In this document: piece after piece, positions 2,104-63,165 of the stretch
Position numbering within the stretch: position 1 is the stretch's first letter
Layout: every line of letters begins with the position of its first letter
Origin: Sulfurospirillum sp.
GTDB taxonomy: Bacteria; Campylobacterota; Campylobacteria; Campylobacterales; QNZT01
Direction of reading: 5' to 3'
DNA length: 64,000 bases
NCBI GenBank assembly: GCA_024762875.1
Contig: JANTGR010000002.1
Coordinates: 191 to 64,190, forward strand
Notes under the pieces: model-generated
Told to the model about the DNA's origin: nothing
Seen by the model: only the letters and a program-made list of their open reading frames with translations
Databases searched by the model: none
Translations under genes and position numbers: made by a program

Positions 2104-3173
2104 ACTTCTTTTAATACCTCTATATATTGGTTAATGGTAGCGGATGGTGAAAAAAGTGCTGCCACTTTTGCTTGATTGGCTTTACATAAATCTGCGATAA
2201 TACTATTTTCTTCTCCTGCATGATTTTTAAAGTTTTCAAAGGTATCGATAAAAATATCTTTTTCCTTATAGATGGGATCAATGAATGTATCATGATAGAG
2301 ATAGGTATGGTTTTGCGCATAGCATGATGCGGGCAGTCCTGAATTGTTTTGAGCAGAAAGAATGATCGATTTATCCGCTATTTTGTATAGCAGGGCATGC
2401 TGCTTTGCTGTGATCAGTACTTCAATGAGAAGATAGTCAAAATTTTTTTCTTCAAGCAGTGCTTTGACGGCTTTTCTCTCTTGCAGGTTATGTGCGTTGA
2501 GATAAAAGATAAAAGTGCTTTGGCGCAGTCTCTCTTGCGGAAGTGTCAGCAGTTCTTCTATAAAAGCCAGTTGTTTAGCCAGTGCGCCCTGCAGGTGGAC
2601 ATAGGTAATTTCTTTGTCCAAATCAAATCCCATGGCATAAGAAGCTTTGAAAATATCTTCTTGTGTGATTTTATCTATTGCATCAAATAAGGGGATACCG
2701 TCATAGATCAGACGGCTTTTTTGTGCATAGTGATCCATGAGCGCATTTTTGTGGGAATTAAAGAGCAAAAATCTTGCTTTATTGTAGAGATAGCTGTAAA
2801 AAGGCTTTAGCAGTAAAGAGGGTGTATCATGATAACCGCAAGTGATAAAGTAGTCATAACATTTTTCACGGATTTCATCAACGATAAAAAGGGCTGACTG
2901 TTCACATTCGTACAGATCGATGATATCATAGTCCTCAAGCGAACGAACCATTTTTTTGCGTTTGTAGATACGATTTAAGAGTCTGAGTCTGGCAGTGGAT
3001 TTTTCTAAAAATTCCAGTTTGCTGGCAGGTTCGAGATCAGCTGTCTCATCTCCCTTTTTGAGCTTGTACTCTAGCAGGGAGAGTGTAGATACTTCTGCAT
3101 TGTGTGCCTCTAGCTGTTTGACCTTCTCTTTGAGTGCCTTGTCAAACCGGGTATAAAGAAAGAGTATTTTCAT
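2100..3173 (-). CDS. Hypothetical protein (357 aa), no recognisable motif; 4-nt overlap with tatD suggests co-translation
   Basis: Long ORF with coding-like composition. Its stop overlaps the tatD start. I recognise no signature. Confidence 0.6.
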   Translation of the reverse strand: MKILFLYTRFDKALKEKVKQLEAHNAEVSTLSLLEYKLKKGDETADLEPASKLEFLEKSTARLRLLNRIYKRKKMVRSLEDYDIIDLYECEQSALFIVDEIREKCYDYFITCGYHDTPSLLLKPFYSYLYNKARFLLFNSHKNALMDHYAQKSRLIYDGIPLFDAIDKITQEDIFKASYAMGFDLDKEITYVHLQGALAKQLAFIEELLTLPQERLRQSTFIFYLNAHNLQERKAVKALLEEKNFDYLLIEVLITAKQHALLYKIADKSIILSAQNNSGLPASCYAQNHTYLYHDTFIDPIYKEKDIFIDTFENFKNHAGEENSIIADLCKANQAKVAALFSPSATINQYIEVLKEV

Positions 3174-3195
3174 AAATTAGTGGTATCATATCAGC

Positions 3196-3399
3196 TTAGT
3201 CGATGACAAACGATATCTTGGCCGTGATTCTGTACTTGGATATTTTATTGTCTGTGACTTTGGCACTTTTTTCCTGGATATAGATTGACTTGATATTTCT
3301 GACTGATTTTGAGGCTTCTGTGATCGCATTTTGTGCTGCATCTTCCCAACTTTTGTCTGATTGTGCTAAAACTTCAATTACTTTAACTACTTTTGCCAT
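3196..3399 (-). CDS. Dodecin-family flavin-binding protein
   Basis: 67 aa. The pattern VKVIEVLAQSDKSWEDAAQNAITEASKSVRNIKSIYI...YRITAKISF matches the dodecin fold family as I recall it. Confidence 0.75.
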   Translation of the reverse strand: MAKVVKVIEVLAQSDKSWEDAAQNAITEASKSVRNIKSIYIQEKSAKVTDNKISKYRITAKISFVID

Positions 3400-3555
3400 T
3401 TTTATTCCTTTGGTAAAATTTTGTTCTACATTATACTATAATTTTTATTCTAATACTATCATGATAGCTTAATAAAATAGTTGGAACATATTGTGCTAAA
3501 GAAATGAATATATTGTATAGGCTGAGCATACGATATCATAAAAGGAGAAATATTG

Positions 3556-5871
3556 ATGCATAAAATGTCCAGATTTTTTGTCTCTAAAAACTTTATCAAT
3601 GGACTTTTTATCGTACTTTTCATTTTTTTATGTACCATTTTGATACTCGAAATAAACAAAAATGTAACACTATACGAAAGTGACAAATATAAAGACATCA
3701 GTAATTTATTTACAACGATTGAACACTCCCTTGATGATAAAATTCATACAATCACCTATCTGCATACTGCTGCAGAGAATTGGCTGGAGAATCCGCCAGC
3801 AAATTGTCATAGGTTGACATCTACTGTTGATAGCGTGCCTGAAAAAGATTATTTTGCGATTGATGAGCGGTATCCTAAAAGTTTTGATGCGTTATATCGC
3901 AGTAATCTAACAGGATATGCAGATTTAAAAAAGATTGACGCAGATGAGATCTGTATGGCACTCTCGCTCAATCCGCTTTTTTATGATATCAGTACAGGCA
4001 TAAAAGATATCGCCTGGGTCTATTATACTTCCAAAAAAGGTTTTATTAATCTTTTTCCCTATGTGGATTCTGATAATTTCCACCTGCAAAAAAAGGATAT
4101 GGATAAAGAGTGTTATACCTATGGACTGCCGCAGTATAATCCCGACAAATCCTATTATATGACACCTTTATATGAAGATGCCGGAGGGTTGGGGCTGATG
4201 ATCAGTATCGGGATGCCTGTCTATCATGATAGCCTGTTTCGTGGTGTGGTTGCTTTTGATATGACGATAGAACATCTTACCAATCTGCTTTCACCAATCA
4301 AAGATTTCAGAGGCTCTGCTTTGATTAAAAACAGACAGGGACAAGTTTTGGCTGCATATAATATTGATGGATTTAAGTATGATAAAATCACACCTTTGGA
4401 AAGCTTGGTGGATATCAATATTCTGGATAAATCAAAGGTGAAAAATGGTTTTTCTGAGTATGATGGAAAGTTGATTTACCATCAAAAGTTTCACAATGCC
4501 CCTTGGGAATTTGTCTATTTTACCGATAAAGCGGATATGTATCAGACTGTTTTTAAGAATTTGATTCCTTTGCTGCTGATATTTTTCTTTTTAGCTGTAG
4601 TGAGAATATTGGTCAATAAGCTTTTTGTGGCACAAAGTGCCTTGACAAAGTTGAATGCAAAACTAAAAGAGAAGGTCAAAGCCAAAAGCAAAGAAGTGGT
4701 TTATCAAAGATATAATTATGAGATGCTTTTTGAACAGTCCAGTGTAGGGATTTGTCTATTGAAAGAGGCACGTATTTTAGAGTGCAATAAAACACTGGCC
4801 AGGATGTTTGGCTATCAGTCAAAAGAGTCACTGCTGGGACATTTTATCCTGGCTTTTTCCCCAAAAATACAACCAAGCGGTATTTCCTCTTTAAAAGAGG
4901 CACGACAGATACAGCGCGATTTTATAGAACAAAAAAGTCATGCTTTTGAGTGGCAGTTTAAGCGCAAAAACGGTGAACTGTTTTGGGCTGATATATCCTC
5001 AAATATCATCAATATAAAAGGTGAAAAAATCATCCAGGTTATCTGCAAGGATATCAGTATGAGAAAAACCCTTGAAAAAGAGAATAAAATACAGACCAAC
5101 CAGCTCATAAAACAATCCAAACTCGCACAGATGGGTGAGATGCTGAGTATGATATCCCATCAGTGGCGACAGCCTCTGGGCTCAATATCGATGGTGATGA
5201 TGGGGTTGCAGATGAAAATTGAGATGGGTAAATTACCAAGAGGCAGTGAAGAAGAGGCTGCAAAAAGTGATGCAGTGATTTTGGAATATGTCGAAAAAGT
5301 GAACAAATATGTGCAGTTTCTCTCCAGTACAATTGATGATTTTAAAAACTTCTTTCAGCCACAAAAAGAGTACAGGGTTTTTGATATCAACAGCCTGATC
5401 AATGAAGCAATCACTCTCATCGCTCCGACGCTGCAATCCAAATCGATCATGATCGAAAAAAACTATCGTGCCCAGGAGGCAGTAGAGAGTTATGAAAATG
5501 AAATCAAACAGGTTATTTTAAATATCCTCAACAATGCCAAAGATGCCATGGTTGAAAACCAAAGTGAAAATGCGACTATCATGATAAGTACCTATACCCT
5601 CAAACATACCTGCATGATAGAGATTACTGATACTGGCGGCGGTATCAGGAGTGAAGATATGCCAAAGATATTTGACCCTTATTTTTCTACCAAATCAAAA
5701 AATGGAACCGGCCTGGGACTGTACATGAGTAAAATGATTATTGAAGAACACTGCAAAGGGAAACTGGATGTCAAAAATAAAGACAAAGGTGCCTCTTTTA
5801 CAATCTCTTTGCCGCTGATGCCGGCAGTGATGCCAGACGCCAGGAACGCTTCTATCGCTCTAAAAGTGTAG
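3556..5871 (+). CDS. Sensor histidine kinase with N-terminal TM, periplasmic Cache-like domain, second TM, PAS domain, H-box SHQWRQPL and HATPase_c
   Basis: ORF 3553..5871. ATG at 3556 lies 8 nt after AAAGGAG. H-box MISHQWRQPLGSI and G-boxes DTGGGI and GTGLGLYMS. No adjacent response regulator. Confidence 0.85.
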   Translation: MHKMSRFFVSKNFINGLFIVLFIFLCTILILEINKNVTLYESDKYKDISNLFTTIEHSLDDKIHTITYLHTAAENWLENPPANCHRLTSTVDSVPEKDYFAIDERYPKSFDALYRSNLTGYADLKKIDADEICMALSLNPLFYDISTGIKDIAWVYYTSKKGFINLFPYVDSDNFHLQKKDMDKECYTYGLPQYNPDKSYYMTPLYEDAGGLGLMISIGMPVYHDSLFRGVVAFDMTIEHLTNLLSPIKDFRGSALIKNRQGQVLAAYNIDGFKYDKITPLESLVDINILDKSKVKNGFSEYDGKLIYHQKFHNAPWEFVYFTDKADMYQTVFKNLIPLLLIFFFLAVVRILVNKLFVAQSALTKLNAKLKEKVKAKSKEVVYQRYNYEMLFEQSSVGICLLKEARILECNKTLARMFGYQSKESLLGHFILAFSPKIQPSGISSLKEARQIQRDFIEQKSHAFEWQFKRKNGELFWADISSNIINIKGEKIIQVICKDISMRKTLEKENKIQTNQLIKQSKLAQMGEMLSMISHQWRQPLGSISMVMMGLQMKIEMGKLPRGSEEEAAKSDAVILEYVEKVNKYVQFLSSTIDDFKNFFQPQKEYRVFDINSLINEAITLIAPTLQSKSIMIEKNYRAQEAVESYENEIKQVILNILNNAKDAMVENQSENATIMISTYTLKHTCMIEITDTGGGIRSEDMPKIFDPYFSTKSKNGTGLGLYMSKMIIEEHCKGKLDVKNKDKGASFTISLPLMPAVMPDARNASIALKV

Positions 5872-7378: not shown

Positions 7379-8274
7379 TTGCTTCCCCAGTGCAGTTTTT
7401 GTTTCAAGACATCAAAATAGTTTCGCTCTTCTCTGTGGATCATTCTAACACCGCGTGCAGCTGTTTTGATAGTAATATCATCAAAAAATTTGAGATTGTA
7501 GATATCCTGTCCATCTACAACGATGATCGTCTCATCCTCACTTTGAAAGGCTACTTCAAAATTTGCCGGCAAAACCATCGGGCGCTCTGTGAGCGAGTGC
7601 GGACAAATGGGTGTCAAAATCAGTGCTTCTGTGAGTGGAAAGATAATGGGCCCGTTGGCAGAAAGATTGTAGGCAGTAGAACCGGTAGGCGTCGAGATAA
7701 TCAAACCATCCCCGCGATAGCGATTCAGATGTTTACGTTTCATACCGGCATCTGTTGAAGTGACATAGGCATCAACATCAATCATACCTTCAATAGAAGG
7801 GCGTGACAGTACGATGTCATTGAGGGCAATGATCTTTTTGGTCCCTGTAGCACCATGCAGTTCTACTTCCAGGACCATCCGGGTATCGATGCGATAGGTC
7901 CCTTGAAATAGTTTATCGATAAAACTCTCTATTTCATCCAGTTTGATATCCGTTAAGAACCCTAGATTGCCGGCATTGATACCTAAAATAGGCTTATCAT
8001 GATAGTAAGAGCGGCGAGAAAGAGAAAGCAGTGTCCCATCACCGCCAAAAGAGATCAAAATATCACTCTCTTCAAATAACTTTTCCCGGGGAATTCCACC
8101 CTCAAGACCGATCATTTCTGCACTGTTTTTTGCGATGAGCAAGGTGACATGATGCTTATCCAGTGCTTTTTTGAGTACAGTATAGTAGGGCTTGAGATGT
8201 TTGGAATCCGGGCGTATGACCAGACCGGCTGTTTGTATGGTGCTGAGTTTTTCATCGTCAAATATAAAATGCAT
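7375..8274 (-). CDS. nadK: NAD(+) kinase
   Basis: 299 aa with GGDGTLL and NAGNLGFLT motifs. Confidence 0.9.
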   Translation of the reverse strand: MHFIFDDEKLSTIQTAGLVIRPDSKHLKPYYTVLKKALDKHHVTLLIAKNSAEMIGLEGGIPREKLFEESDILISFGGDGTLLSLSRRSYYHDKPILGINAGNLGFLTDIKLDEIESFIDKLFQGTYRIDTRMVLEVELHGATGTKKIIALNDIVLSRPSIEGMIDVDAYVTSTDAGMKRKHLNRYRGDGLIISTPTGSTAYNLSANGPIIFPLTEALILTPICPHSLTERPMVLPANFEVAFQSEDETIIVVDGQDIYNLKFFDDITIKTAARGVRMIHREERNYFDVLKQKLHWGSN

Positions 8275-8359
8275 AAAGATATGTTACTTTTTTTTTGATT
8301 AAAAGCAGGAAAATAGTGTGGTGCATTTTAACAAATAGACGCTAGAGACTTATCATGAT

Positions 8360-8448
8360 AAAGTGTTGTATATTTTACTTATTCACTAAGATTGCACTGT
8401 AAAACGGCTGCAGAGTCATGCACAACTAGACATTGTTTAGAACACTTT
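8360..8448 (+). repeat. REP/MITE-like intergenic element, copy A (degenerate arms)
   Basis: Core TTCACTAAGATTGCACTGTAAAACGGCTGCAGAGTCATGCAC (8382-8423) is about 85% identical to the cores at 27518-27560 and 30699-30739 (reverse complement). Short flanking inverted repeat AAAGTGTT / AACACTTT. Confidence 0.7.
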
Positions 8449-10864: not shown

Positions 10865-10870
10865 TCTATC

Positions 10871-11629
10871 ATGATAAGCACTCCCAGCTTCTACTCGGTG
10901 ATTGTCGGTACAGAACTGCTCAACGGCAGACGACAGGACAGTCATTTTGGCTTTTTAAACAAAGCCTTGGTACAAAGGGGCTGGGAGCACAAAGCTTCTT
11001 TTGTAATCAAAGATGATCCCCATTTTGTAGAAGATATATTTAGCTTGATTCAAGCTGATAAAAATGCAGTCATGTTTTCATTTGGGGGCATTGGTTCGAC
11101 GCCTGATGATTTTACGAGAGAAGTTGCCGCACGGGCATTTACCCATAGACCTTTACAGCGGCACAAAGAAGCAGAAGAGATTATCACTGCCCGTTTGGGT
11201 GAAAAGGCCTATCCTCATCCAATCAAGATGGCAGATTTACCAGACAATGCAGAGTTGATAGCAAACCCAGTCAATAAAATGCCGGGATTTTCACTACAAA
11301 AGAAATTCTTTTTTTTACCGGGATTCCCCGAAATGGCACATCCGATGATTGAGGCTATTTTAGAAGAGCACTACCCCAAAGCCCCACAAAAATACAGCTG
11401 TAATTTTATGGTTGAAGCCAGTGAAGCATTGCTCATAGATATCATGGATGCTTTGCCTTCTCAGATAGAGTTGTCCTGTTTGCCTTCATTTGCAGGAGAA
11501 AAAAGAAGGGCGGAGATATATTTGGCCGATATAGATAAACAGCGTTTAGAAAAATGGTGTCAATTTTTTAAAGATAAGTTAGTAAAATCACAATTAAAAT
11601 TTAAGGAGATAGAGAATGTTAGTAGATAA
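10871..11629 (+). CDS. Molybdopterin-binding (MoCF_BD / CinA N-terminal-like) domain protein
   Basis: 252 aa with VIVGTELLNGRRQD and GGIGSTPDDFT motifs of the MoaB/Mog/CinA-N family. Confidence 0.7.
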   Translation: MISTPSFYSVIVGTELLNGRRQDSHFGFLNKALVQRGWEHKASFVIKDDPHFVEDIFSLIQADKNAVMFSFGGIGSTPDDFTREVAARAFTHRPLQRHKEAEEIITARLGEKAYPHPIKMADLPDNAELIANPVNKMPGFSLQKKFFFLPGFPEMAHPMIEAILEEHYPKAPQKYSCNFMVEASEALLIDIMDALPSQIELSCLPSFAGEKRRAEIYLADIDKQRLEKWCQFFKDKLVKSQLKFKEIENVSR

Positions 11630-18276: not shown

Positions 18277-18309
18277 TTTAAAAAATTCCTTTATGTATTG
18301 AATTGGTGC

Positions 18310-18337
18310 TATCATGATAATAGACGTTATCATGATA
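18310..18337. repeat. Two copies of the iterated palindrome TATCATGATA, 18 bp apart, in the pyrH-rpoZ intergenic spacer
   Basis: GCTATCATGATAATAGACGTTATCATGATAGAT read directly from the sequence. Confidence 0.9.
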
Positions 18338-19114: not shown

Positions 19115-20332
19115 CTATTTTATCAACCTCATTGGATTAATATGTTTTGTTCCCTGTGTCACTTCAAAGGTCAGTTCATGTGCAACCCGACCTATGATAT
19201 ATCCTTTTTTCACTCTTTTGCCGACACGTATTGTCGGTGCAATTTTTGACAAGTGTGCATAAATAGTGTGTAGATTATTTTTATTTTCTACGATCACGAC
19301 ATTGTCAAGTACAGGTGTCTTTTCTGCATAAATCACTCTTCCATCCAGTACATTTCGTACTTTTGCATTTTTTTGTTTTGCACGCAGGATAACAGACTCG
19401 TTAAATATTTTTATTTTATAAATTGGATCGGTGTAATTACCAAATTTTTGTGTTACGGTATAGTGCTTCAGCGGCGAGATCGTCTTTGAGCCACGATATT
19501 TGATCACTTTTCCATGTTGGTAAGAAGAACCTATCTGTCGGACATTAACACTGCCGGTGTTACTCTCTTTGATGATGGTTTTATCCTGGGCTTCCTTGGT
19601 AATGTGTAATTTTTTAAGTGTGGCCGTGATCAGATTCTGTTCTTTTTTGATACGGTTTAGTTTTTGGATATAACGCTGTTTTTGTTTATTGAGATTTTGC
19701 ACTGTCTTTTTTTGTTTTCTTTTTAAGCGATCCAATTCATTTTTTTTCTTTTTTAGCGCATCTACTTTTGTAGAAAGTTTTGCGAGTTCTTTTTTAACAA
19801 GATCTATATTTTGATTGAGTTTGATATATTTTGATTTTGTTTTTTTGAATTTTGCCCGCAGTAGTCCGGTATAGGTATGGAGCACTTCATTCATCACAAT
19901 ATTGTCTATATTGGTTTCATAGTTTTCCAAAAGATGTCTGCCGTTTTTGTCAACTGTACCTTTGGTGATCATCTCAATAGAGAGCTGTTTGGAGAGAATA
20001 CTCACGACTTTTTTACTGACTAGTTTTTCCTGCTTGGCCAAACGTCGGTAAATATTTTCTATCTTTTTTAATTCTGAACTCTTTATAGAGGTTTTCTTTT
20101 TGAGTTTTGTGATGCTGTTTTGACAGGCTTTTATTTCCTTGCTCAGGCTGCCTAGATCTTTTTTTTGTTGACTGATCTCTTTTGCAATCATGTCAAGTTT
20201 GTGGGAAATCTTTTTTGCCTGTGATTTTTTTGTATCTATTTTCACCTGATTGGACTGAATTTTGTCATCGATGTCAGCCCTTAGTGAGCCTATCATGATA
20301 ACAGGCAGAAAAAGAAATAACACTTTTTTCAT
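19115..20332 (-). CDS. EnvC-like murein hydrolase activator (coiled coil + M23/LytM domain)
   Basis: 405 aa with signal peptide, long K/E-rich coiled coil and C-terminal M23-like domain. ATGA overlap with ftsX upstream. Confidence 0.8.
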   Translation of the reverse strand: MKKVLFLFLPVIMIGSLRADIDDKIQSNQVKIDTKKSQAKKISHKLDMIAKEISQQKKDLGSLSKEIKACQNSITKLKKKTSIKSSELKKIENIYRRLAKQEKLVSKKVVSILSKQLSIEMITKGTVDKNGRHLLENYETNIDNIVMNEVLHTYTGLLRAKFKKTKSKYIKLNQNIDLVKKELAKLSTKVDALKKKKNELDRLKRKQKKTVQNLNKQKQRYIQKLNRIKKEQNLITATLKKLHITKEAQDKTIIKESNTGSVNVRQIGSSYQHGKVIKYRGSKTISPLKHYTVTQKFGNYTDPIYKIKIFNESVILRAKQKNAKVRNVLDGRVIYAEKTPVLDNVVIVENKNNLHTIYAHLSKIAPTIRVGKRVKKGYIIGRVAHELTFEVTQGTKHINPMRLIK

Positions 20333-27073: not shown

Positions 27074-27090
27074 AGCTTACCTTTTGTCTA

Positions 27091-30184: not shown

Positions 30185-30208
30185 CTGTTGTTCCTTTTAT
30201 TTCTCTTG

Positions 30209-37027: not shown

Positions 37028-37034
37028 TTTTATC

Positions 37035-38667: not shown

Positions 38668-39359
38668 ATTTTTCAGTAAAAAAACTTTTGATACAATATG
38701 AAGACAAGGTACTGGTAGATATCGCTTTTGAGATCAAAGATTCACTGGCTTTGGTAGGGCAGAGCGGCAGTGGTAAATCCCTGACATTAAAAGCGCTGTT
38801 GTCTATGCTGCCCAAGAGTCTGGATGTTGATTTGTCCTATACCGGTGATTTTGAAATATCTCCGGGTCAAAATATCGCTATTGTGGTACAAAATCCTTTT
38901 ACGGCACTCTCACCGCTGACACGCATCAGAGAGCAGTTTTTTCTAGAAGAATCTGAAGCAATAAAGTATCTAGAGATGGTTGAACTGGATGGGAGTTTAC
39001 TCTCAAGGTACCCCAGTGAATTGAGTGGTGGTCAACTGCAGCGTGTGGTCATTGCAATGGCACTTTCATCAAAACCACAGCTCTTGCTGCTGGATGAACC
39101 GACTACTGCTCTTGACTCTGAGACAAAAAAGGCTATCATGATACTATTAAAGAGGCTGCAAAAGCAGATGGGATACAAGATACTGTTTGTGACTCACGAG
39201 ATTGAGATAACACAGATGTTATGTGATGAAGTGGCAATTTTAAAAGAGGGTTTGATTATTGAACGGGGTTTAATCAGTGATGTGCTGGCAGCACCCAAAG
39301 AGTCTTACTCCAAGGCATTGATAACATCAAACTTTAAACATAGAGGTTTTAGAGAATGA
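38664..39359 (+). CDS. ABC transporter ATP-binding protein
   Basis: 231 aa with GQSGSGKS, LSGGQLQRV and LLLLDEPT. No permease gene alongside. Confidence 0.85.
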   Translation: MNFSVKKLLIQYEDKVLVDIAFEIKDSLALVGQSGSGKSLTLKALLSMLPKSLDVDLSYTGDFEISPGQNIAIVVQNPFTALSPLTRIREQFFLEESEAIKYLEMVELDGSLLSRYPSELSGGQLQRVVIAMALSSKPQLLLLDEPTTALDSETKKAIMILLKRLQKQMGYKILFVTHEIEITQMLCDEVAILKEGLIIERGLISDVLAAPKESYSKALITSNFKHRGFRE

Positions 39360-41323
39360 AAATATTTTTACGTGTGATAGGTCTTTTTTTTATTATCATG
39401 ATAGCAGCAGTGATAGGTGGATATTTTTATATCTCTTCACAGTTAAAATATGATGTTGATAAACTCATCCATTATAATCCCGCTCTGACCACAAAGATTT
39501 ATGACAGAAACGGGGAATTGATTTCTAATGTATTTGGAAAAGAGCACCGCTATTATGTTCCATTTAAAGCAATTCCTCCACGTATGGTGGAAGCCTTGGT
39601 AGCGATTGAGGATACGACATTTTTTGAGCATCCGGGAATCAATATAGAAGCGATTTTACGTGCCGCGATGAAAGATATCAAACATATGAAACTCAAAGAA
39701 GGTGCAAGTACTTTAACACAGCAACTGGTCAAATTGACACTGCTTAGTAATGAAAAAAAATTAAAACGTAAAATCAATGAAGCTATGTTGGCACTTAAAA
39801 TAGAGCATAAATTGACAAAAGAAGAGATATTGGAGCGTTATCTCAATGAAGTCTATTACGGTCATCGATATTATGGTGTAAAAACAGCCGCGCAGGGGTA
39901 TTTTAGAAAGGATTTAAGTGATTTAAATCTTAAAGAAATTGCGATATTGGCAGGTATCCCGCAGCGTCCGAGTGCTTATGATCCTACACGCCATCTGGAT
40001 CTCTCCCTCTCTCGGGCAAATACAGTTTTGCAGAGGATGTACACATTGGGCTGGATCAGTGAAGATGAGCTTGAAAAGTATCAGGCACTGAGACCAAAGA
40101 TCTATAATGATACATTAACCCAAAATAGAGCACCGTACATCACCAATGAAGTATTAAAACGTTTAAAATCAGATTATCCAGATATCAGGACAGGCGGGTA
40201 TGAGATCTATACGACAATTGATCTGGAAGCACAAAAAATTGCAAAAGAGGCTTTAAAACATGCCTATGAAGGGATATTGAGCCGAGGGGAAAAATATAAC
40301 AAAACAGCCGAAGAACCGGTTGATTACAGTGATTTAAACGGGGCAATGGTCGTCTTGGAAAATAAAACCGGTGAAGTGCTCTCGTTGGTGGGTGGCGTGG
40401 ATTATAACAAAAGTGTGTTTGATCGTGCCATACAGGGCAAAAGGCAGCCTGGGTCCAGTTTCAAGCCTTTTATTTATCTGAGTGCACTTAATGCAGGTTA
40501 TTCAACACAAAGCAAGTTAACGGATATTTCACGCAGTTTTTCTTATAAGGATCAGGATGAAGAGAAAGAGTGGCGGCCGAAAAACTATGAGAAAAACTTT
40601 GAAGGGTTGATTACACTGCGGAATTCTTTGGTACATTCGAGAAATCTGGCAACGATTAACATGGTCAATGAAATGGGGCTTTCAACGGTACATCAGGCAT
40701 TGGTAGAGATGGGATTTAAAAATCTTCCTTCTGATTTGTCAATCTCCCTGGGTACTTTTTCAATCACACCTTTTGCCTTTGCCGGGGATTATACGATTTT
40801 GTCCAATCAGGGGACAAAAGTCGAGCCTATGCTTATCAAAAAAGTACGTTCTGAGGATGGTGGTGTGAAAATCTATCATACAGTTGAACGTAATGTGACT
40901 ACTGCAGCACAAAGTTTTTTGATAACGTCCATCCTGGAAGATGTGATTAAGCGCGGAACTGGACGCCGTGCAGCGGTGAAGGGCTTGGCTCTGGCGGGTA
41001 AAACAGGTACGACCAATGCTTACAAAGATGCCTGGTTTTGCGGTTATTCTCCTGAAATAGAAACGATCGTGTGGTTTGGTAAAGACAATAACGCAAAGAT
41101 GGCAAAAGAGACGGGTGGTAAAGCGGCTGCACCGGCATTTTCCGAGTTTTATCGTGAGTATCTGAAACTGCATCCTGAGATGAAAAGAGAGTTTGATATT
41201 CCAAAAGGAGTGAGAGTAGTGAAAAAATCAGCTGGTCAAAATGAATATTTTACTGATATATCAGCTCCACCCAACGATGCAAAAAGTGCATCAGAAGAGT
41301 TAGAGCAGGAATTACTTTTTTAA
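39356..41323 (+). CDS. mrcA: Class A penicillin-binding protein 1A (glycosyltransferase GT51 + transpeptidase)
   Basis: 655 aa with EDTTFFEHPGI, GASTLTQQL, SSFKP and KTGTT. Confidence 0.9.
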   Translation: MKIFLRVIGLFFIIMIAAVIGGYFYISSQLKYDVDKLIHYNPALTTKIYDRNGELISNVFGKEHRYYVPFKAIPPRMVEALVAIEDTTFFEHPGINIEAILRAAMKDIKHMKLKEGASTLTQQLVKLTLLSNEKKLKRKINEAMLALKIEHKLTKEEILERYLNEVYYGHRYYGVKTAAQGYFRKDLSDLNLKEIAILAGIPQRPSAYDPTRHLDLSLSRANTVLQRMYTLGWISEDELEKYQALRPKIYNDTLTQNRAPYITNEVLKRLKSDYPDIRTGGYEIYTTIDLEAQKIAKEALKHAYEGILSRGEKYNKTAEEPVDYSDLNGAMVVLENKTGEVLSLVGGVDYNKSVFDRAIQGKRQPGSSFKPFIYLSALNAGYSTQSKLTDISRSFSYKDQDEEKEWRPKNYEKNFEGLITLRNSLVHSRNLATINMVNEMGLSTVHQALVEMGFKNLPSDLSISLGTFSITPFAFAGDYTILSNQGTKVEPMLIKKVRSEDGGVKIYHTVERNVTTAAQSFLITSILEDVIKRGTGRRAAVKGLALAGKTGTTNAYKDAWFCGYSPEIETIVWFGKDNNAKMAKETGGKAAAPAFSEFYREYLKLHPEMKREFDIPKGVRVVKKSAGQNEYFTDISAPPNDAKSASEELEQELLF

Positions 41324-42214: not shown

Positions 42215-42247
42215 AGTTTTTCCTCTCTATCATGATAGTGTCGTTTA

Positions 42248-43207: not shown

Positions 43208-43217
43208 CAATGCTTCT

Positions 43218-48413: not shown

Positions 48414-49901
48414 CTATTTCTCCTCATCTTTATCATGATAGTTGTTTATTTTGTATGTATGCTCTTTGAGCCAATACAGACACATTCTCACACCGGCACC
48501 ACTGGCACCTGACTGATTATATCCCCACTCTTTTTCGATAAATGCAGGACCTGCGATATCAAGGTGCAGCCATTTGTCTTTGACTGTATCTGTAACAAAG
48601 TTGTCTAAAAAAAGTCCGGCAGTGATAGCCCCGCCATAACGGGAAGCAGCGATATTGGAAATATCAGCTATATCACTTTTTATCAGTTTTTTCAAATAGC
48701 GGTTAAAAGGAAGTGTGGCACTGAGTTCTCCACTTTTATCTGCAGCACTCAGCATCTCATCTTTGAGCGCACTGTTATGTCCCATGATGCCCGTAGTATA
48801 TTCTCCCACAGCGACTACACAGGCACCGGTGAGTGTCGCCATATCAACAAGATAGTCAGGCTCCAGCTCACAGGCATAACAGAGACAATCAGCCAATACC
48901 AGGCGTCCTTCAGCATCTGTGTTGCGTACTTCTATGGTGACACCATTTTTAGCAACAAGCACATCATCCGGTTTGTAAGCATTGCCACCGATCATGTTTT
49001 CACAGCTGCCGATGATAGTATGTACTTCAAATGGCACTTGTAGCTGGGCTGCTCCTTTGAGAATAGCCAGCGCTGCAGCAGAGCCGCTTTTGTCAGATTT
49101 CATACTGACCATATGTTCACTTGGTTTGAGGCTGAGCCCGCCGCTGTCATAAGTCAATCCTTTTCCTACAAAGACAAATTTTTCTTTTGCATCTTTTGGT
49201 TTGTAGGTAAGATGAATAAATCGCGGTTTATGCGCACTTGCCCTGGCTACGGCAGCAAATGCACCCATCTTTTGCTCTTCTAAAAAGTGTTCATCTCCTA
49301 TAAAACAGGTAACATTATCTAAAGTATCTGCCAGTTTCTGTGCTTCATTTGCCAGTGCTTCAGGTGTCATATCATCAGGAACAGCATTGACAACATCTTT
49401 TGCCAAATTGGCTGCTTGGGCAATGATCGTTGCTTCATCCAGAGCATTTTGAGCAGATTCCAGTTTCAGCTCTTTATCATGATACTCTTCCAGTGACAGG
49501 ATGAGTTCTCTTTGGATTTTAGTCTCTTTTTTCGACTTGTAGCGATCAAAGCTATAGTCACCCAAAAGGGCACCTTCAACAATCGCTTTTGTATAAATTG
49601 CCGGGCAGGTTTTGACGTAGGAGCCTATTTTGATTGTTTTGTAGTTGGTGTTTTTGATTGCTTTGAGTGCTGCAGCGACTGCCAGTCTGATCTCATCACG
49701 ATCGAGTGAATCGGCACCGGCATAGACTCTATGCTGATGTGGTAAAAAAGCACTTTCTTCACTTTTTGCTTCAAAGTTCAGTGTGCTTAAATCTGTTTGG
49801 TCTTTGACCCATTTGTGCTTTAGTTGTTGATTGATGATGAGAACTATCTCACAATCAGCATGAATGGCATCAAGTTTTTTGGGTGTTACTGTGATTTTCA
49901 T
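48414..49901 (-). CDS. pepA: Leucyl aminopeptidase (M17)
   Basis: 495 aa with the NTDAEGRL motif. Confidence 0.9.
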   Translation of the reverse strand: MKITVTPKKLDAIHADCEIVLIINQQLKHKWVKDQTDLSTLNFEAKSEESAFLPHQHRVYAGADSLDRDEIRLAVAAALKAIKNTNYKTIKIGSYVKTCPAIYTKAIVEGALLGDYSFDRYKSKKETKIQRELILSLEEYHDKELKLESAQNALDEATIIAQAANLAKDVVNAVPDDMTPEALANEAQKLADTLDNVTCFIGDEHFLEEQKMGAFAAVARASAHKPRFIHLTYKPKDAKEKFVFVGKGLTYDSGGLSLKPSEHMVSMKSDKSGSAAALAILKGAAQLQVPFEVHTIIGSCENMIGGNAYKPDDVLVAKNGVTIEVRNTDAEGRLVLADCLCYACELEPDYLVDMATLTGACVVAVGEYTTGIMGHNSALKDEMLSAADKSGELSATLPFNRYLKKLIKSDIADISNIAASRYGGAITAGLFLDNFVTDTVKDKWLHLDIAGPAFIEKEWGYNQSGASGAGVRMCLYWLKEHTYKINNYHDKDEEK

Positions 49902-52540: not shown

Positions 52541-52640
52541 ATTTAAACCTAATGGTAAGTTGTGTGATATTATATCCAATTGCAAATGAAAGTTATCATG
52601 ATAAGTTGATTGTTAGCTATTTACAGCGCATCAAATAAAA

Positions 52641-52977
52641 AGGCATAGCGATAAGCCGAGTTCTGTCGTGGATGATTATTTATCTCTAAATTATCTTACG
52701 ATAATCCTCTAGCGAAGTGCGAAATTATAAGAGTTATACCATACACTTCTTGCTGCAGATTGGGTTTACCTAGCTGGTAAGATTGCTCAAACCACTGGTG
52801 AGCTCTTACCTCACCCTTTCACCGTGACTCCCGATTTCTTTCATGAAAATCGATAAGCCGTCTTCTCTCTGTTGCACTGGCCCTCAGGTTGCCCTGGCCA
52901 TCTGTTAGATGGAATCCTCTCTTATAGCAGCCCGGACTTTCCTCTATCATGATAGATAGCAATCATCTACTATGCCT
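52641..52977 (-). ncRNA. rnpB: RNase P RNA, bacterial type A
   Basis: The minus-strand read contains GAGGAAAGUCCGGGCU, GGUGAAAGGGUGAGGUAAGAGCUCACCAG, AGGUAAACCCAA and ACAGAACUCGGCUUAUCG. P1 pairing is GGCAUAG (5') with CUAUGCC (3'). Confidence 0.9.
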
Positions 52978-53011
52978 CACCTGTATTATAGCATATTTTT
53001 TTACTGTTTTC

Positions 53012-54889
53012 TCAAGCGCTTTTTTTCTTTTGGTCTATCTTGATGTAAATGTGCAGGATATCAATTGCTGCTGGGGTGACTCCTTGTATCTCTGAGGCAG
53101 CAAAGAGGGTTGGTGGATTGATTTTTTCAAATTTTTCGATGATTTCATGACTGAGACCGCTGACTTTTTTAAAGTCAAAATTAGATGGAATTTTAATATT
53201 GATATAGTTTTTCATCTTATCGATCTGCTCTTGCTGTTTTTTGATATAGTTGGCATATTTTGCCTCTATCATGATAAGTTCTTTACTGGCAATATCAAAC
53301 TCTTTTGTCTGGGGTACAAGTATCTCAAGTGTTTGGGTAGTACATTCTGGGCGGGCAATGATACTTTTGAGGTTGACTTTGTCAGCAATCTTTTTTTGAT
53401 AAAGTGAAGCTAAAAGTGCGTTATTCTCTTTAGAAGGTGTCATAAAGTTGTTCTCAAGAAAGAGCAGTGTTTCTTTGAGGTTTTTCTCTTTTTGCATCAT
53501 TTTTTCATAAGCTGTTTTCTGCACCAAACCCAAATCATAGCCATATCCTCTCAGTCTGATATCGGCATTGTCCTCACGTAAAAGCAGGCGAAATTCTGCA
53601 CGGGAAGTAAACATACGATAAGGCTCTTTGGTGCCTTTTGTGACCAAATCATCAATCAATACACCAATATAGGCTTCATCACGGCGAAGAATCAGCGGCT
53701 CTTTTTCATCTATGGCTAAAACAGCATTGATACCTGCCATCAGACCCTGGGCGGCGGCTTCTTCATAACCTGTTGTACCGTTGATCTGGCCTGCCATGTA
53801 CAGCCCGGCTATTTTTTTGGTTTCAAGGGTATGCTTTAGTTCTGTAGGGTTGATATAGTCGTACTCGATGGCATAGCCATAACGGACAATTTTAGCATTT
53901 TCCATCCCTTTTATAGAGTGAATGATATCACGTTGTACATCTACAGGCAGAGACGTTGTCAACCCATTGATATAGTATTCTGTCGCTTCAATAGTCTGTG
54001 GTTCGATAAAAAGATGGTGCCGTTCTTTGTCTGCAAAACGGTTGACCTTGTCCTCGATACTAGGACAGTAACGTGGTCCTATACCCTCTATCTGCCCGGT
54101 AAACATGGGCGCACGGTAAAAGTTGTCCGCGATGATCGAATGTGTGTCAACATTGGTATATGTGATAAAACAGGGTAATTGTGTTGGTGAAAAATGTTCT
54201 TTGTCACTTTCAAATGAGAAAGGAAGAGGTGTGGTATCACCACCTTGTTCTTCCATCACGGAAAAATCGATACTTTTTGCATCTATACGGGGACAGGTAC
54301 CTGTTTTGAGCCGTCCGATGTCCAATCCCAGGGATTTGATACTTTCACTCAGTTCATAAGAGGCAAATTCTCCCTGTCTCCCGGCTTTTTGTTTTTTATC
54401 ACCTATATGAATGAGCCCGGCAAGAAAAGTACCTGAAGTGATAATGATTTTTTGTGCAAAATAATGGTTGCCAAGCTGTGTGATGACACCCTTGACGCAG
54501 TTATCTTCTACGATCAATTCATCAGCAATCTCCTGTTTGATGGTGAGATTGGGAGTATTTAGACAAATATCACGCATATACATGGCGTAACGATCCATAT
54601 CAATTTGAGCACGGCTGCCGCGTACTGCAGGTCCTTTGGAAGCGTTGAGGATACGAAACTGTATGCCTGTGGCATCTGTTGCTTTTCCCATCTCACCGCC
54701 CAGTGCATCCACTTCTTTGACCAGATGTCCTTTGGCAAGACCACCAATGGCAGGATTACAGGATGCAGCACCGATACGCTCTACCAGTATCGTCACAAGG
54801 AGTGTTTTTTTACCCATTCTCGCACTGGCCAGTGACGCTTCTATCCCGGCATGCCCACCGCCGATAACAATAACATCAAAATCTATCAT
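53012..54889 (-). CDS. mnmG: tRNA uridine-5-carboxymethylaminomethyl synthesis enzyme MnmG (GidA)
   Basis: 625 aa with FAD motif [13 protein letters not shown]. Confidence 0.95.
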
Positions 54890-54974
54890 GATAACCCTAA
54901 ATCTATATTTTTAAAGCATTATAACAAATAAAGGTTAAGCAGGGTTTATCTTGGTATGGCGCTTTCTAGTGAAA

Positions 54975-59413: not shown

Positions 59414-59478
59414 CTAAGAGATCCTTTTATATGGTGAACAGTTTTAAAAGAGATTATAACATAAAGATGGGAGAAATA

Positions 59479-60183
59479 ATGAATAAAAAAGTGTTGACGT
59501 TACTAATGAGCATACTTTTGGCAGTAGGCAGTTTTGCTTATACCAACTATCATGATAAGTATAAGAGAGTGAACAAAGTCTCTACAGAAAATCTGTTGGC
59601 GATCTCCTGGCAAAATGCTTTTTGCCAAATGCATCAAAATAAAAGAGAGTGCCGCAATGTCAAACCCACCGCTTATGCTGCATCACATTTTACGCTGCAT
59701 GGTTTATGGCCGCAGCCTAGAAACAATGTAAATTGTCAAGGAAACCCTAAAGTGAGACTTGACAAAGCGCTTTACCAGGAATTATTAGTTGTGATGCCTG
59801 CGGCAAAAAGTGGTTTGCAAAATCATGAATGGAAAAAACACGGTACCTGTTATGGCAAAAAAGCCGATGCCTATTTTGAAGATTCCATTGCGCTGGTAAA
59901 ACAGATCAACGCTTCTGCAGTCAGGGAACTGTTTAAGCGCAATGTTGGCCGTCAGCTTAGTAAAAAAAATGTTATGCTGGCATTTGATAAAGCGTTTGGT
60001 AAAGGAGCTGGCAGAAAAGTCAAGATGATGTGCAAAAAAGGACTGATTACTGAATTGCAGATCAATTTAGAGGGCAAGATTGACCCGGAGACTAATCTAA
60101 AAGAGTTATTAAAGGGGGCAAAAAACGCACGAGGAGGATGTATGAAGGGTAGAGTAGATGCTGTAGGATTTGGCAGGAAGTAG
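59479..60183 (+). CDS. Secreted ribonuclease T2-family protein (RNase I-like)
   Basis: ORF 59431..60183. The ATG at 59479 after GGGAGA gives a signal peptide MNKKVLTLLMSILLAVGSFA. Catalytic motifs FTLHGLWPQ and HEWKKHGTC. Confidence 0.85.
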   Translation: MNKKVLTLLMSILLAVGSFAYTNYHDKYKRVNKVSTENLLAISWQNAFCQMHQNKRECRNVKPTAYAASHFTLHGLWPQPRNNVNCQGNPKVRLDKALYQELLVVMPAAKSGLQNHEWKKHGTCYGKKADAYFEDSIALVKQINASAVRELFKRNVGRQLSKKNVMLAFDKAFGKGAGRKVKMMCKKGLITELQINLEGKIDPETNLKELLKGAKNARGGCMKGRVDAVGFGRK

Positions 60184-61315: not shown

Positions 61316-62105
61316 AAGCACCATCGGTAACTTTTGCAAAAAAGGTGATTTGAGTATTGTTTTCTTGTGCTATTTGCATAATTGTATCACAATCTTTTTC
61401 TTTGCAGGAAAAAAGGACTTCATACTCTTCCCCCGAACATAAAATAGCCTCATCCATGTTACTAAAAAACGCAAAGCCTTTTTTATTCATACTTGAAAGT
61501 CGTGATAAATCTTTACTCAGGCCATCGGATATATCCATCGCTGTGGTGAAGTATGGCGCAGCTGCGTAGAAAAAATCTGCTTTTAAATCAGGTGTGATGA
61601 ATTTGGAAGCAGGGGAGATTGTCTCTCCTCGAAAAAGTGTGTCTAAATCTTTTTGAACAGAGCCCAAAGAGCCAGTAAAGCCTACAATGTCATCTATCTT
61701 TAAGCCTGTTCTTCTCACGGGATTGTGCGTATGTGAAATGAGGGTGATAGAGATATCCAACTGATCCCCAGCCACCGTATCGCCACCGATGATTTGAAAG
61801 TCAAACTCTTTGGAAGCTTTTAAAAAGCCATGAGAGAGTGCATCAAGTTCTGCTTTGGCAAAGGTTTTTGGGATTTTGATGCCGATGAGTGCCTGTTTGG
61901 GTCTGGCATTCATTACAATGGCATCAGAGATATTGACCAGCATACTTTTATAAGCGATCTGCTCCAGGCTCATCCAGTCACGTTTAAAGTGGATATCTTC
62001 ACAAAAAAGGTCTTTGGAATAAACCAATTCATCGATAACTGCGCCATCATCTCCGATGTGGGCATCTTTAAAAAGGGAGATGAAGTAGGACTCTTTATCT
62101 ATCAT
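61281..62105 (-). CDS. thiL: Thiamine-monophosphate kinase
   Basis: 274 aa with the HIGDDGAVI motif and AIR-synthase-like fold signatures. Confidence 0.8.
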   Translation of the reverse strand: MIDKESYFISLFKDAHIGDDGAVIDELVYSKDLFCEDIHFKRDWMSLEQIAYKSMLVNISDAIVMNARPKQALIGIKIPKTFAKAELDALSHGFLKASKEFDFQIIGGDTVAGDQLDISITLISHTHNPVRRTGLKIDDIVGFTGSLGSVQKDLDTLFRGETISPASKFITPDLKADFFYAAAPYFTTAMDISDGLSKDLSRLSSMNKKGFAFFSNMDEAILCSGEEYEVLFSCKEKDCDTIMQIAQENNTQITFFAKVTDGAYETVCQENHFE

Positions 62106-62123
62106 GACAGGGTGTGCATATGG

Positions 62124-62948
62124 TTATTGTTCACTTTCACACTTATCTTCCTGTTTGTCGATAGAGAAAAATCCACATCCCTCTTTATCACTGGAACCGT
62201 TGATATTGAAAAGGTCGTCTGTTGTGGGCAAAGGGGTATCTTGTGACTCGGACTCTTTTTGGGAAAATGAATCAATAATCGCTTCATCACCGTTTAGTAT
62301 CTCTACCACCTGATCTTTTTTGACTATCATGATAGGAATGGTGCTAAAGTTTAAAAAAGTGGCAAAATTTTTGGCTTCAGGTGAGTTGATATCAAGCTTG
62401 GTAAAATTGATATCATTTTCTTTAAAATATGTTTTTACTTTTTTACAGTGCGGGCAGGTTGGTGACTGGATAAGGTAGGTGCCGTTTTTGACCACAAAAG
62501 CAGCCGTTTTAGGGATGGCCAAAAAGCTAAGCGCCGTTACCAGTGCCAATACCGCCGAAAGTGCCATCACCGCGTATCGACCAGATGCAGTGATCATGAT
62601 AGCCCATAAAAAAGCATAGACACCCATGCAGAACTTACACATCTCGGGTGAGACAAAGTACTGGTAACCCAGCATGATAGTTTCAAAAAGTAAAGAGACA
62701 AAAAGGACGAGATAAAAAAACTTTTTACTGACTTTATCATGATAACTCAGCCAGCCGAGTATCATGATAAGCAGTGAAACAGCAACGCCGATGTAGTTGA
62801 GATAAAGGCTGTCAAAACGCAGCAGATTATCAGCAAAAAGGCAGCCTGTGGAGTGACAGAGTGAAGAGTGAGAGAGTTTTAATCCCGTCTCTATGGCATT
62901 GTAGAGAAAAAAGAAAATAGGCAAAACGATGAAAGCTATTTTTTGCAT
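62124..62948 (-). CDS. VKOR-like membrane protein fused to a glutaredoxin/NrdH-like CPHC domain
   Basis: 274 aa with about 5 TM helices. Loop cysteines CHSTGC, membrane CKFC, then SPTCPHCKKVKTYF...TIPIMIVK (Grx fold with cis-Pro) and an acidic Cys-containing tail. Confidence 0.65.
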   Translation of the reverse strand: MQKIAFIVLPIFFFLYNAIETGLKLSHSSLCHSTGCLFADNLLRFDSLYLNYIGVAVSLLIMILGWLSYHDKVSKKFFYLVLFVSLLFETIMLGYQYFVSPEMCKFCMGVYAFLWAIMITASGRYAVMALSAVLALVTALSFLAIPKTAAFVVKNGTYLIQSPTCPHCKKVKTYFKENDINFTKLDINSPEAKNFATFLNFSTIPIMIVKKDQVVEILNGDEAIIDSFSQKESESQDTPLPTTDDLFNINGSSDKEGCGFFSIDKQEDKCESEQ

Positions 62949-63165
62949 CGATGTGTTCCTTTGTCTGTTATAGTTTAGGTTGTTGTTATGATAGCAGTAG
63001 CTTGGTAAATGTTTGTTAAGATTGAGAATTTTTTAAGAGTAATTAGTCAAACTTAAAGAGTGGTGAGGAACAAGCATTTTGATGAATCTATACTATCATG
63101 ATAAAAATAGTTGATGGAACTCTTTGTGTTCGTGGTCAACCGCGATTAGAGCTTGATTTAGGCTT

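Follow-up and report, generated by a model that had tools for sequence, protein, structure and literature searches.

Hyper-abundant short DNA words are rare, and those described so far, namely Chi, the DNA uptake sequence (DUS) of Neisseriaceae and the uptake signal sequence (USS) of Pasteurellaceae, and the palindrome HIP1 (GCGATCGC) of cyanobacteria, have each exposed machinery that chooses which DNA is kept, taken up or recombined. It has been reported that HIP1 brings a methylation-dependent gain in transformation, and that it co-varies with type IV secretion proteins which the authors tie to DNA uptake (bioRxiv 10.1101/2024.09.10.611283; 10.64898/2026.06.24.733823). In Campylobacter jejuni, methylated RAATTY is the signal by which DNA is discriminated at uptake (PMC10046745; bioRxiv 10.1101/2024.09.10.611283); the mark is written by an orphan methyltransferase (PMC10046745), and the sequence reportedly occurs about every 60 bp. 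The subject of the present analysis is the exact 10-letter palindrome TATCATGATA, of which 36 copies lie in a 64-kb stretch of DNA from a Sulfurospirillum sp. (contig JANTGR010000002.1, positions 191 to 64,190), hereinafter referred to as the window. This word is as enriched and as sharply defined as the known ones, in a phylum for which only the degenerate methylated 6-mer RAATTY had previously been available, and it is plausibly, albeit far from securely, a lineage-specific and selectively maintained word of the HIP1 or DNA-uptake-sequence kind, which would serve as a self-DNA tag in natural transformation.

A pattern search of the window gave a density of 0.56 copies per kb, and the 36 starts listed in an earlier note on this DNA all match, with none missing and none extra. 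The excess over chance claimed in that note also holds, with 0.1–0.9 copies expected against the 36 observed, namely 0.11 in dinucleotide shuffles (maximum 2 in 100 shuffles) and 0.13–0.86 in Markov models of order 0–4; an order-5 Markov model, which already contains most of the word, expects 5.5. The AT-rich background that the note had assumed is near the measured G+C content of 39.4%. When synonymous codons are shuffled with all proteins kept, 5.4 coding copies are expected (maximum 11 in 200), and shuffling of the codon order leaves 0.29, against 26 coding copies observed; that is to say, the word exceeds both codon-preserving shuffles. Chance and composition are excluded by the dinucleotide, Markov (order 0–5), synonymous and codon-order nulls taken together.

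As for the unit that is selected, CATG alone stands at background level in the window (225 observed against 225–327 expected), and the nested palindromes TCATGA, ATCATGAT and TATCATGATA occur 57, 42 and 36 times, respectively, while TCATGA outside the word, with 15 copies against about 21–32 expected for the hexamer, is not above chance. Since the core is not enriched and the excess sits in the full 10-mer, the selected unit is the whole word of 10–12 letters and not its core. Only 10 one-mismatch copies stand beside the 36 exact ones, mostly altered at outer positions (15213, 25063, 30207, 37031, 40103, 56279, 56531, 60985, 62100 and 62592); the six such variants given in the earlier note are all real, and its list lacked those at 30207, 40103, 56279 and 56531. 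The symmetry that the note had seen in the flanks is also borne out, with C or T as the 5′ neighbour in 33/36 copies, A or G as the 3′ neighbour in 30/36 and both in 27/36, which gives the extended form YTATCATGATAR. Beyond these adjoining positions the information in the flanks of the 36 copies is at most 0.13 bits per position, and the best pairwise flank identity is 20/40, by which an interspersed repeat (repetitive extragenic palindrome, miniature inverted-repeat transposable element (MITE) or Correia-like element) is excluded, and the copies do not sit inside one larger repeated element. Two close pairs (18 and 25 bp apart) are present against about 0.6 expected, which is not significant.

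With regard to the reading frame, 13 copies are read as TAT-CAT-GAT (Tyr-His-Asp, YHD), 13 as ATC-ATG-ATA (Ile-Met-Ile, IMI), and 10 are intergenic or at a gene edge, while the third frame, which contains TGA, is used by none of the 36. About 28% of the copies thus lie in or at the edge of non-coding DNA, which itself makes up about 7.6% of the window. Amino-acid frequencies predict 1.0 occurrences of the tripeptide YHD and 3.4 of IMI; the counts are 13 and 16, and the word encodes every one of the YHD tripeptides and 13 of those that read IMI. The word therefore acts at the level of DNA and distorts the encoded proteome. A protein motif is excluded by the use of two frames, the intergenic copies, the start- and stop-codon use and the copy in the RNase P RNA. 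In line with this, the earlier note's statement that copies occur in unrelated housekeeping genes, in intergenic DNA and in an RNA gene is correct, the RNA gene being that of RNase P RNA, and its view of a selected DNA word, as opposed to a mobile-element footprint or a protein motif, agrees with the two frames, the random flanks, the clade restriction and the conservation of orthologous sites.

The alternative that the word has no function, being a product of chance, of codon or amino-acid usage, of a protein motif or of mobile-element remnants (MITE ends or a target-site footprint), is extremely improbable. It would be helped by the fact that this is an AT-rich word in an AT-rich genome, and that its codons are the preferred synonymous choices (TAT 78%, CAT 69%, GAT 77%, ATC 47%) except for ATA, which makes up 21% of Ile codons; however, every null falls short by one to two orders of magnitude, and the word stands at orthologous positions in ten genomes, yet is missing from sister lineages of the same composition.

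The data for the focal genome are the 64 kb of the window, and those for its relatives are fragments of at most 22.5 kb (designated L with a number), mostly syntenic with it. A scan of species-representative genomes seeded with the alanyl-tRNA synthetase (AlaRS) of the window recovered 80 Campylobacterales loci, among which only the two closest, L001 and L020, both with 82% AlaRS identity, have many copies: L001, a Campylobacterales metagenome-assembled genome (MAG), carries 15 in 22.5 kb, and L020 ('uncultured Sulfurospirillum') carries 6 in 8.4 kb. The other 78 loci comprise 76 without the word and two with a single copy each. Graded relatives were obtained from a MurG protein search, and the contigs L241–L248 were then scanned for the word: every relative whose MurG is 69–82% identical to that of the window has it at 5–12 copies per 10 kb, and the next relative, L248 (MurG 67%), has none. 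L241–L247 represent different samples, their sources being three assemblies at NCBI, two metagenomes at JGI and one assembly at ENA. TATCATGATA is thus confined to one clade of uncultured Campylobacterales with a sharp boundary at 67–69% MurG identity, and this clade comprises at least ten species-level lineages, the taxonomy of the clade and its relatives being that of the MAG record titles. In practice, the word can be used as a clean taxonomic marker for binning contigs of the clade, and as a flag for word-free segments that were acquired horizontally.

The conservation of positions, which the earlier note had proposed to look for in related genomes, is marked. Synteny between the window and L001 extends over about 18 kb; their aligned coding DNA is 73% identical, and at third codon positions the identity falls to 52%, even when codons for identical residues are compared. 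Fully identical aligned 10-mers make up 6.0% of this background, while 7 of the 9 alignable coding sites of the word are exact in L001. The same is seen in a matrix of ten genomes (the copies carry no strand, the word being a palindrome, and the states of the relatives are taken from the clade alignment). The copy at 33674..33683 in an AhpC/thioredoxin-fold gene (33345-33887, minus strand; YHD) and the copy at 39134..39143 in an ABC ATPase gene (38664-39359; IMI) are each exact in 8/8 aligning clade loci, that is, in all aligned clade genomes, and the outgroups differ there at 3–7 of the 10 positions. Several sites of the matrix are exact throughout the 8–9 clade genomes aligned there. Three further conserved sites are in the YHD frame: 38191..38200 in the BioF-like gene is exact in 7 other clade genomes, and 32783..32792 and 33002..33011, both in MurG, are exact in 6 clade genomes each. 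At the conserved sites the outgroups differ at 2–9 of 10 positions and encode other residues: at 38191 there is, for example, His-Tyr-Gly against the Tyr-His-Asp of the clade, at 33002 there are 2–5 mismatches, and at 32783 there is an alignment gap or unrelated sequence. In addition, 30287..30296 in FlgB (30209-30637, minus strand; IMI) is exact in L001, L242, L243 and L244 and has one mismatch in L241 and L246; 33304..33313 at the C-terminus of MurG (IMI) is exact in L001, L243 and L244 with one mismatch in L241 and L242; 25638..25647 in RodA (25126-26313, plus strand; IMI) is exact at the orthologous position of L241; and 27367..27376 in the ORF (open reading frame) 27091-27474 (minus strand; IMI) is exact at that of L245.

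Besides this conservation, the copies evidently turn over, since gains and losses are found in the same alignments. The RodA copy at 25272..25281 (IMI) is missing from L241; the copy at 39394..39403, in the N-terminal hydrophobic stretch of PBP1A (FFIIMIAA; IMI), is exact in the window only, with one mismatch in L245 and L246; and at site 38124 TATCATGATA is found in six relatives and not in the window, which was counted as a sub-clade gain like that at 37774. Decay to one mismatch in the window is seen at 30207..30216 (TGTCATGATA), which overlaps the flgB stop codon and has an exact counterpart at the matching gene end of L001 (L001:6577; outside the alignment, and probably orthologous by position), and at 37031..37040 (TATCATGATC), at the start of maf, whose L001 orthologue (13022) is an exact copy of the word. 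The site at 37774..37783 in the BioF-like gene (YHD) is a gain of the sub-clade that comprises the window, L242 and L243, in which an adjacent double change CC→GA created the word: the other clade genomes and the nearest outgroups have Tyr-His-Pro, and those with the word have Tyr-His-Asp. This is a clear case of a DNA word overriding the conservation of a protein. The comparison shows that TATCATGATA arose in the ancestor of the clade and spread, over the regions sampled, to about one copy per 1.5–2 kb wherever protein or RNA constraints tolerate it; since then the exact 10-mer has been held at the same positions while new copies arise.

The constraint on the side of the genes is seen in alaS (window 33986-36538, 2.5 kb), which has no copy in the window or in the 8 clade loci that span it (L001, L020, L241–L243 and L245–L247), about 1.7 copies per gene being expected at the clade-wide density. 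Copies cluster in less constrained genes, such as MurG with three and the glutaredoxin-domain gene 62124-62948 with three. Highly constrained genes resist the word.

When the DNA of the clade is pooled (218 kb), 150 exact copies are found against 1–1.7 expected, i.e., 0.69 per kb, while all 30 one-mismatch neighbours together give 54 against 21–29 expected. The exact word is thus enriched about 100-fold and its neighbours about 2-fold, which points to a reader with the stringency of a restriction enzyme, or to efficient removal or correction of decayed copies. As these counts and the conserved orthologous sites indicate, the exact word is under purifying selection or homogenisation. The same stringency, being typical of recognition by methyltransferases and restriction enzymes, also bears on an alternative which is rather unlikely and still the best placed of the rivals: a HIP1-like word that is coupled to methylation and has its role in the cytoplasm, i.e., the extended site of a CATG- or TCATGA-specific orphan DNA methyltransferase, whose methylated sites would serve replication, repair or strand discrimination, or gene regulation, and whose abundance a repair bias of the very-short-patch type may boost. 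All the hyper-abundant words in these lineages share the palindromic core CATG, just as HIP1 embeds GATC and CGATCG, the sites of two orphan methyltransferases (PMC4390886), and in Elhai's argument short-term viability depends on HIP1-associated methylation, a need that uptake alone would not explain (PMC4390886). CATG-specific systems also appear to be active in the phylum, for C. gastrosuis (L030) has no CATG in 22.5 kb. However, CATG itself (225 against 225–327) and TCATGA outside the word (15 against about 21–32) are not enriched, a 10–12-mer exceeds the usual methyltransferase site, and no methyltransferase was found in the clade DNA scanned, which is a small fraction of any genome. A single-base repair bias, moreover, cannot alone build a 10-bp word, gains such as that at 39394 differing from their orthologues at no fewer than 3 positions. 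As a side observation on the core, where L030 (strain PS10) has none, other loci have 50–100 CATG, and L039 (Ca. Sulfurimonas kebritensis) has no TCATGA and only 29 CATG; the counts in these two loci suggest strong avoidance, of the sort expected where restriction is specific for CATG or TCATGA.

Other Campylobacterales carry words of their own. Sulfurospirillum-like MAGs have TTTACATGTAAA, whose core TACATGTA occurs 16 times in L014 against 0.15–0.3 expected (family loci L014, L018, L022, L077, L054, L033, L012, L016 and L010/L011), and CTCTACATGTAGAG is found in L016 and related loci. In Sulfurimonas there is an asymmetric word, YGGCATGTGGAW / GGCATGTGGA, with 15 copies in L052 against about 0.01–0.02 expected, and the loci of the GCATGTGG family are L052, L024, L063, L064, L021, L028 and L038. 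Lineages that carry one of the three word families lack the other two, and CATG is the centre in all three. Sites keep their positions within a lineage, and the flanks drift at one and the same site, e.g., TTACATGTAAA against CTACATGTAGA. In-place switching between the families was considered and rejected: the sites of TATCATGATA, TACATGTA and GCATGTGG map to different orthologous positions, with the single exception of the AlaRS gene near window position 35952, where the L014 word, the L052 word and the CCCATGTGGG of the window coincide. Since sites of different families do not coincide, each word expanded independently. Many lineages have no such word, including most Sulfuricurvum and Sulfurovum loci and L248. 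Sister lineages with different CATG-centred words or with none, on the two sides of the 67–69% boundary in MurG, offer a natural experiment, by which the nature of the reader of these words becomes accessible to direct study. In the C. concisus loci (L066, L067, L071, L075, L076 and L078), AAATTT, which is an instance of RAATTY, stands every ~138 bp in L066 (163 in 22.5 kb against 39 under a Markov-1 model), and GCTAAATTTA(GC) occurs 11–13 times per locus against 0.4–1.9 expected, GCTAAATTTA itself being enriched 7–36-fold.

The asymmetric word of Sulfurimonas also bears on a Chi-like role, in which the word would be a recombination or anti-degradation signal read by helicase-nucleases of the AddAB/RecBCD type, by which self DNA is protected and recombined after breaks. 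Chi sites are over-represented, lineage-specific short words and form one of the three known classes of hyper-abundant oligomers according to Elhai (PMC4390886), and unmethylated HIP1 aids transformation only inside homology arms, which its authors read as possibly Chi-like (bioRxiv 10.1101/2024.09.10.611283). Nevertheless, such a role is very unlikely for TATCATGATA, which is palindromic, and its non-palindromic relative GGCATGTGGA stands on both strands without bias (7:10 in L052; 29:41 pooled). Chi sites, on the other hand, are asymmetric, strongly co-oriented with replication, only 5–8 nt long and far less dense than TATCATGATA.

Because the words of the other lineages share the CATG centre, a single shared recognition module is inferred, possibly one that reads a methylated CATG core, with the lineage-specific flanks acting as 'dialects'. 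It is accordingly conceivable, though doubtful as matters stand, that free-living Campylobacterales, namely the Sulfurospirillum-like and Sulfurimonas-like lineages together with this uncultured clade, share a self-DNA recognition system with the CATG-centred dialects TATCATGATA, TTTACATGTAAA, CTCTACATGTAGAG and YGGCATGTGGAW, perhaps read only when CATG is methylated. If so, signalling of the DUS/USS kind would have originated independently a third time, and the system would be a mechanistic bridge between the RAATTY mark and HIP1 and would control DNA uptake or recombination and hence the boundaries of gene flow between lineages. A CATG-centred dialect series across Campylobacterales appears to be new: in the literature covered, which did not include REBASE or subscription-only sources, no paper was found in which TATCATGATA or a pair of the related words is given as a genomic motif, nor one that links uptake sequences or CATG methylation to these genera. 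The earlier note's statement that no equivalent was described in Campylobacterota stands as far as TATCATGATA is concerned, and has to be amended by the methylated RAATTY of Campylobacter jejuni as a partial precedent.

Among the known systems, HIP1 is the closest in form. Both words are short perfect palindromes, about 100-fold over-represented, placed in coding sequence in more than one frame as well as in non-coding DNA, restricted to a lineage, built on a 4-bp palindrome of the sort that methyltransferases classically target, and kept at orthologous positions more often than the background predicts (Xu et al. 2018, PMC5861425). The differences are that HIP1 has 8 bp and TATCATGATA 10–12 bp, that sequence, base composition and phylum are not the same, that the core is GATC/CGATCG in the former and CATG in the latter, that cognate methyltransferases are known for HIP1 only, and that HIP1 is nearly phylum-wide with one sequence, whereas TATCATGATA belongs to a narrow clade whose sisters have other words or none. 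That is to say, TATCATGATA is of the same kind as HIP1 without being HIP1, for its sequence is not GCGATCGC and its host, as the AlaRS and MurG relatives indicate, belongs to Campylobacterales and not to cyanobacteria.

The likeness to DUS and USS lies in the density of roughly one copy per 1–2 kb, in the placement within genes, where peptides are constrained, together with enrichment in non-coding DNA, in the exact word being greatly favoured over its one-mismatch neighbours, and in positional conservation along with ongoing gain and loss, as expected from a molecular drive biased by uptake. As with those signals, TATCATGATA is dense and dispersed over housekeeping genes of all kinds, its presence on both strands being automatic for a palindrome. 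There are also dialects with an invariant core, which is CATG for the Campylobacterales words, and DUS dialects share the invariant core CTG. In contrast, DUS and USS are asymmetric, and TATCATGATA is a perfect palindrome without a terminator-pair arrangement; a ComP-like pilin receptor and an uptake bias belong to DUS/USS, with which TATCATGATA was compared by sequence statistics; and the three word families of Campylobacterales occupy different positions and expanded independently. By its sequence, host and symmetry, TATCATGATA is a member of neither the HIP1 nor the DUS/USS family, though it is the same sort of object as both. In RAATTY, by comparison, the same phylum has a palindromic, hyper-abundant sequence that is read as a self-DNA mark at uptake; however, RAATTY is a degenerate 6-mer whose abundance comes largely from AT-richness, while TATCATGATA is a fully specified 10–12-mer about 100-fold above its composition. 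The choice of HIP1 and DUS/USS as precedents in the earlier note is supported by every test that was run.

A role in natural transformation is proposed for TATCATGATA because its statistical anatomy matches that of DUS/USS (density, genic placement at protein cost, non-coding enrichment, stringency and dialects), because the only experimentally defined signal of this sort in the phylum is the methylated palindrome RAATTY, and because HIP1 has been reported to raise transformation in a way that depends on methylation. In this proposal, a symmetric (dimeric) protein about as stringent as a restriction enzyme would recognise the word in double-stranded DNA, and the word would tag self or kin DNA at the step of binding and uptake, at that of recombination, or at both. 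Fragments bearing the word would preferentially be taken up and recombined, and this bias would drive the accumulation of the word (molecular drive) and preserve existing copies. Should the words act as tags for uptake or recombination, they would be barriers to gene flow among abundant sulfur-oxidising bacteria, and a handle for making these organisms transformable.

Several points weigh against this proposal. No competence, DNA methyltransferase or restriction gene was found in the window or in about 200 kb of clade DNA, which is less than 10% of any genome; the scan for writer and reader genes consisted of protein-family scans of most window ORFs and of 10 metagenome-contig proteins, Pfam labels on L241–L247, and a crude adenine-methyltransferase motif scan of 27 clade or candidate sequences. 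The classical DUS and USS are not palindromes, and terminator pairs are a frequent arrangement of DUS; TATCATGATA cannot form a stable hairpin, and only 2 of the 35 spacings between neighbouring copies are below 30 bp. This uncultured clade is not known to be naturally competent. HIP1 shows the same comparative pattern of hyper-abundance, clade restriction and positional conservation, and the function of HIP1 is itself unsettled. Finally, the spread of the word over the whole genome, as opposed to one region, is suggested by unrelated metagenome contigs whose taxonomy is unverified. These came from a word-pair scan of metagenomes, which returned short contigs with dispersed TATCATGATA on unrelated chromosomal genes (oligopeptidase A, CopA, BamA, Ppx, MiaB, an RND pump and a c-di-GMP phosphodiesterase).

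Carriage by phages was also considered and rejected: the word-pair scan of viral contigs found no virus with dispersed copies, only local arrays and tandem repeats. One such array is shared by L098:440-2150 and L102:520-2210 (IMG/VR 3300020576_002046 and 3300033066_000988), which are 96% identical over 2.7 kb, have 27–30% G+C, and carry about 14 copies of TATCATGATA, several of them extended towards GGTATCATGATACC, in about 2 kb with few long ORFs. This array resembles an operator, iteron or promoter array, and some protein probably reads the same word there. The viral contig IMGVR_UViG_3300005573_000082 (L100:9552-11255 and L112:14-3921) contains a ~172-bp tandem array with one TATCATGATA per unit, which is unrelated to the dispersed chromosomal copies.

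The existence of such readers leads to the remaining alternative, namely that the copies are high-density sites for an abundant chromosomal protein engaged in nucleoid structuring, segregation or condensation. A perfect palindrome of 10–12 bp is a fitting target for a homodimeric DNA-binding protein, the copies are scattered and hold their positions across the clade, and the clustered GGTATCATGATACC-like array, with about 14 copies within 2 kb of viral DNA, indicates that proteins reading the word probably exist. On the other hand, the Noc, SlmA, MatP and ParB systems have tens of sites per genome, which are regional and tolerant of degeneracy, and TATCATGATA does not follow this pattern: it stands at about 0.6–0.7 copies per kb, mostly within genes and with the exact word alone enriched, at this density 2 Mb would hold roughly a thousand sites, and no regional confinement is seen across the 64 kb or on unrelated contigs. 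The analogy with Noc, SlmA and MatP sites drawn in the earlier note is thus a poor one. Moreover, the word is imposed at a cost to proteins (Tyr-His-Pro to Tyr-His-Asp in BioF), and close relatives lack it entirely, which would be odd for an essential organiser. Taken together, a nucleoid role seems improbable.

Judging from its genes, the window is a piece of ordinary housekeeping chromosome. It encodes AspRS, Adk, RecN, SpoT, TyrRS, RpoZ, PyrH, FtsEX, TrmB, RodA, PBP2, FlgBC and FtsW, then MurG, AlaRS, Maf, a BioF-like protein, PBP1A, capsule export proteins, YchF, PepA and MnmG, together with two-component and c-di-GMP proteins, tRNA-Met and RNase P RNA. The copies not yet located are distributed over it as follows. 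In the first part, the hypothetical ORF 2100-3173 (minus strand) has two copies in the YHD frame, at 2288..2297 and 2825..2834; a third, at 3457..3466, is intergenic and lies 96 nt upstream of a gene for a sensor histidine kinase (3553-5871, plus strand), which itself holds one copy in YHD (4222..4231) and one in IMI (5577..5586). NAD kinase (7375-8274, minus strand) has one at 7995..8004 (YHD), and another, at 8351..8360, lies in the divergent intergenic region between the NAD kinase gene and aspS. Further on, 20291..20300 (IMI) falls in the N-terminal region of a cell-wall-hydrolase-like protein (19115-20332, minus strand) with a weak match to the M23 family.

At several gene edges, letters of the word itself appear to serve as start or stop codons. 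The copy at 10867..10876 lies between the adk stop codon and a CinA-like gene, and its inner ATG (10871) is the apparent start codon of the latter ORF; the inner ATG of 54884..54893 likewise is the apparent start codon of mnmG (54889-54887). Two copies 18 bp apart stand at the 5′ end of the rpoZ ORF 18061-18333 (minus strand): 18310..18319 is read as IMI, and 18328..18337 overlaps the first in-frame ATG, the start at 18333 being probable. At 27089..27098 the inner TGA forms the stop codon (27091) of the ORF 27091-27474 (minus strand).

In the second part of the window, 42228..42237 is intergenic between the ORF 41312-42214 (minus strand) and a Wzz-like gene (42248-43231, minus strand), and the M17 aminopeptidase gene 48414-49901 (minus strand) has two copies in YHD, at 48431..48440 and 49475..49484. 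The copy at 52594..52603 is intergenic between rpiB and the RNase P RNA gene, and that at 52945..52954 lies within the RNase P RNA (52636-52978, minus strand), where it makes up the loop and the 3′ arm of P3, a variable hairpin. MnmG/GidA (53012-54889, minus strand) has a copy at 53267..53276 (IMI), and an RNase T2-family gene (59431-60183, plus strand) has one at 59548..59557 (YHD). The three copies of the glutaredoxin-domain gene 62124-62948 (minus strand) are 62325..62334 (IMI), 62735..62744 (YHD) and, 25 bp from the latter, 62760..62769 (IMI); the last copy, at 63094..63103, is intergenic and lies beyond the start of this gene.

A few minor observations were made in the relatives. In L243, an insert of about 0.9 kb (11106-11950), with a Fic-domain gene and a 28-residue ORF, lies between murG and the AhpC-like gene and is unique among the clade loci; it contains no copy of TATCATGATA, the segment being too short to test for depletion. 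In the Sulfuricurvum MAG STD1_133 (L023), a short unit (CAGGAA/ACAGGAAC) occurs about 16 times and may be a tandem repeat. In another Sulfuricurvum MAG (L056:15770-17280), eight AGCTSSAGCTTGGGAAYG units form four inverted pairs within 1.5 kb, which is a larger structured repeat and not a dispersed word.

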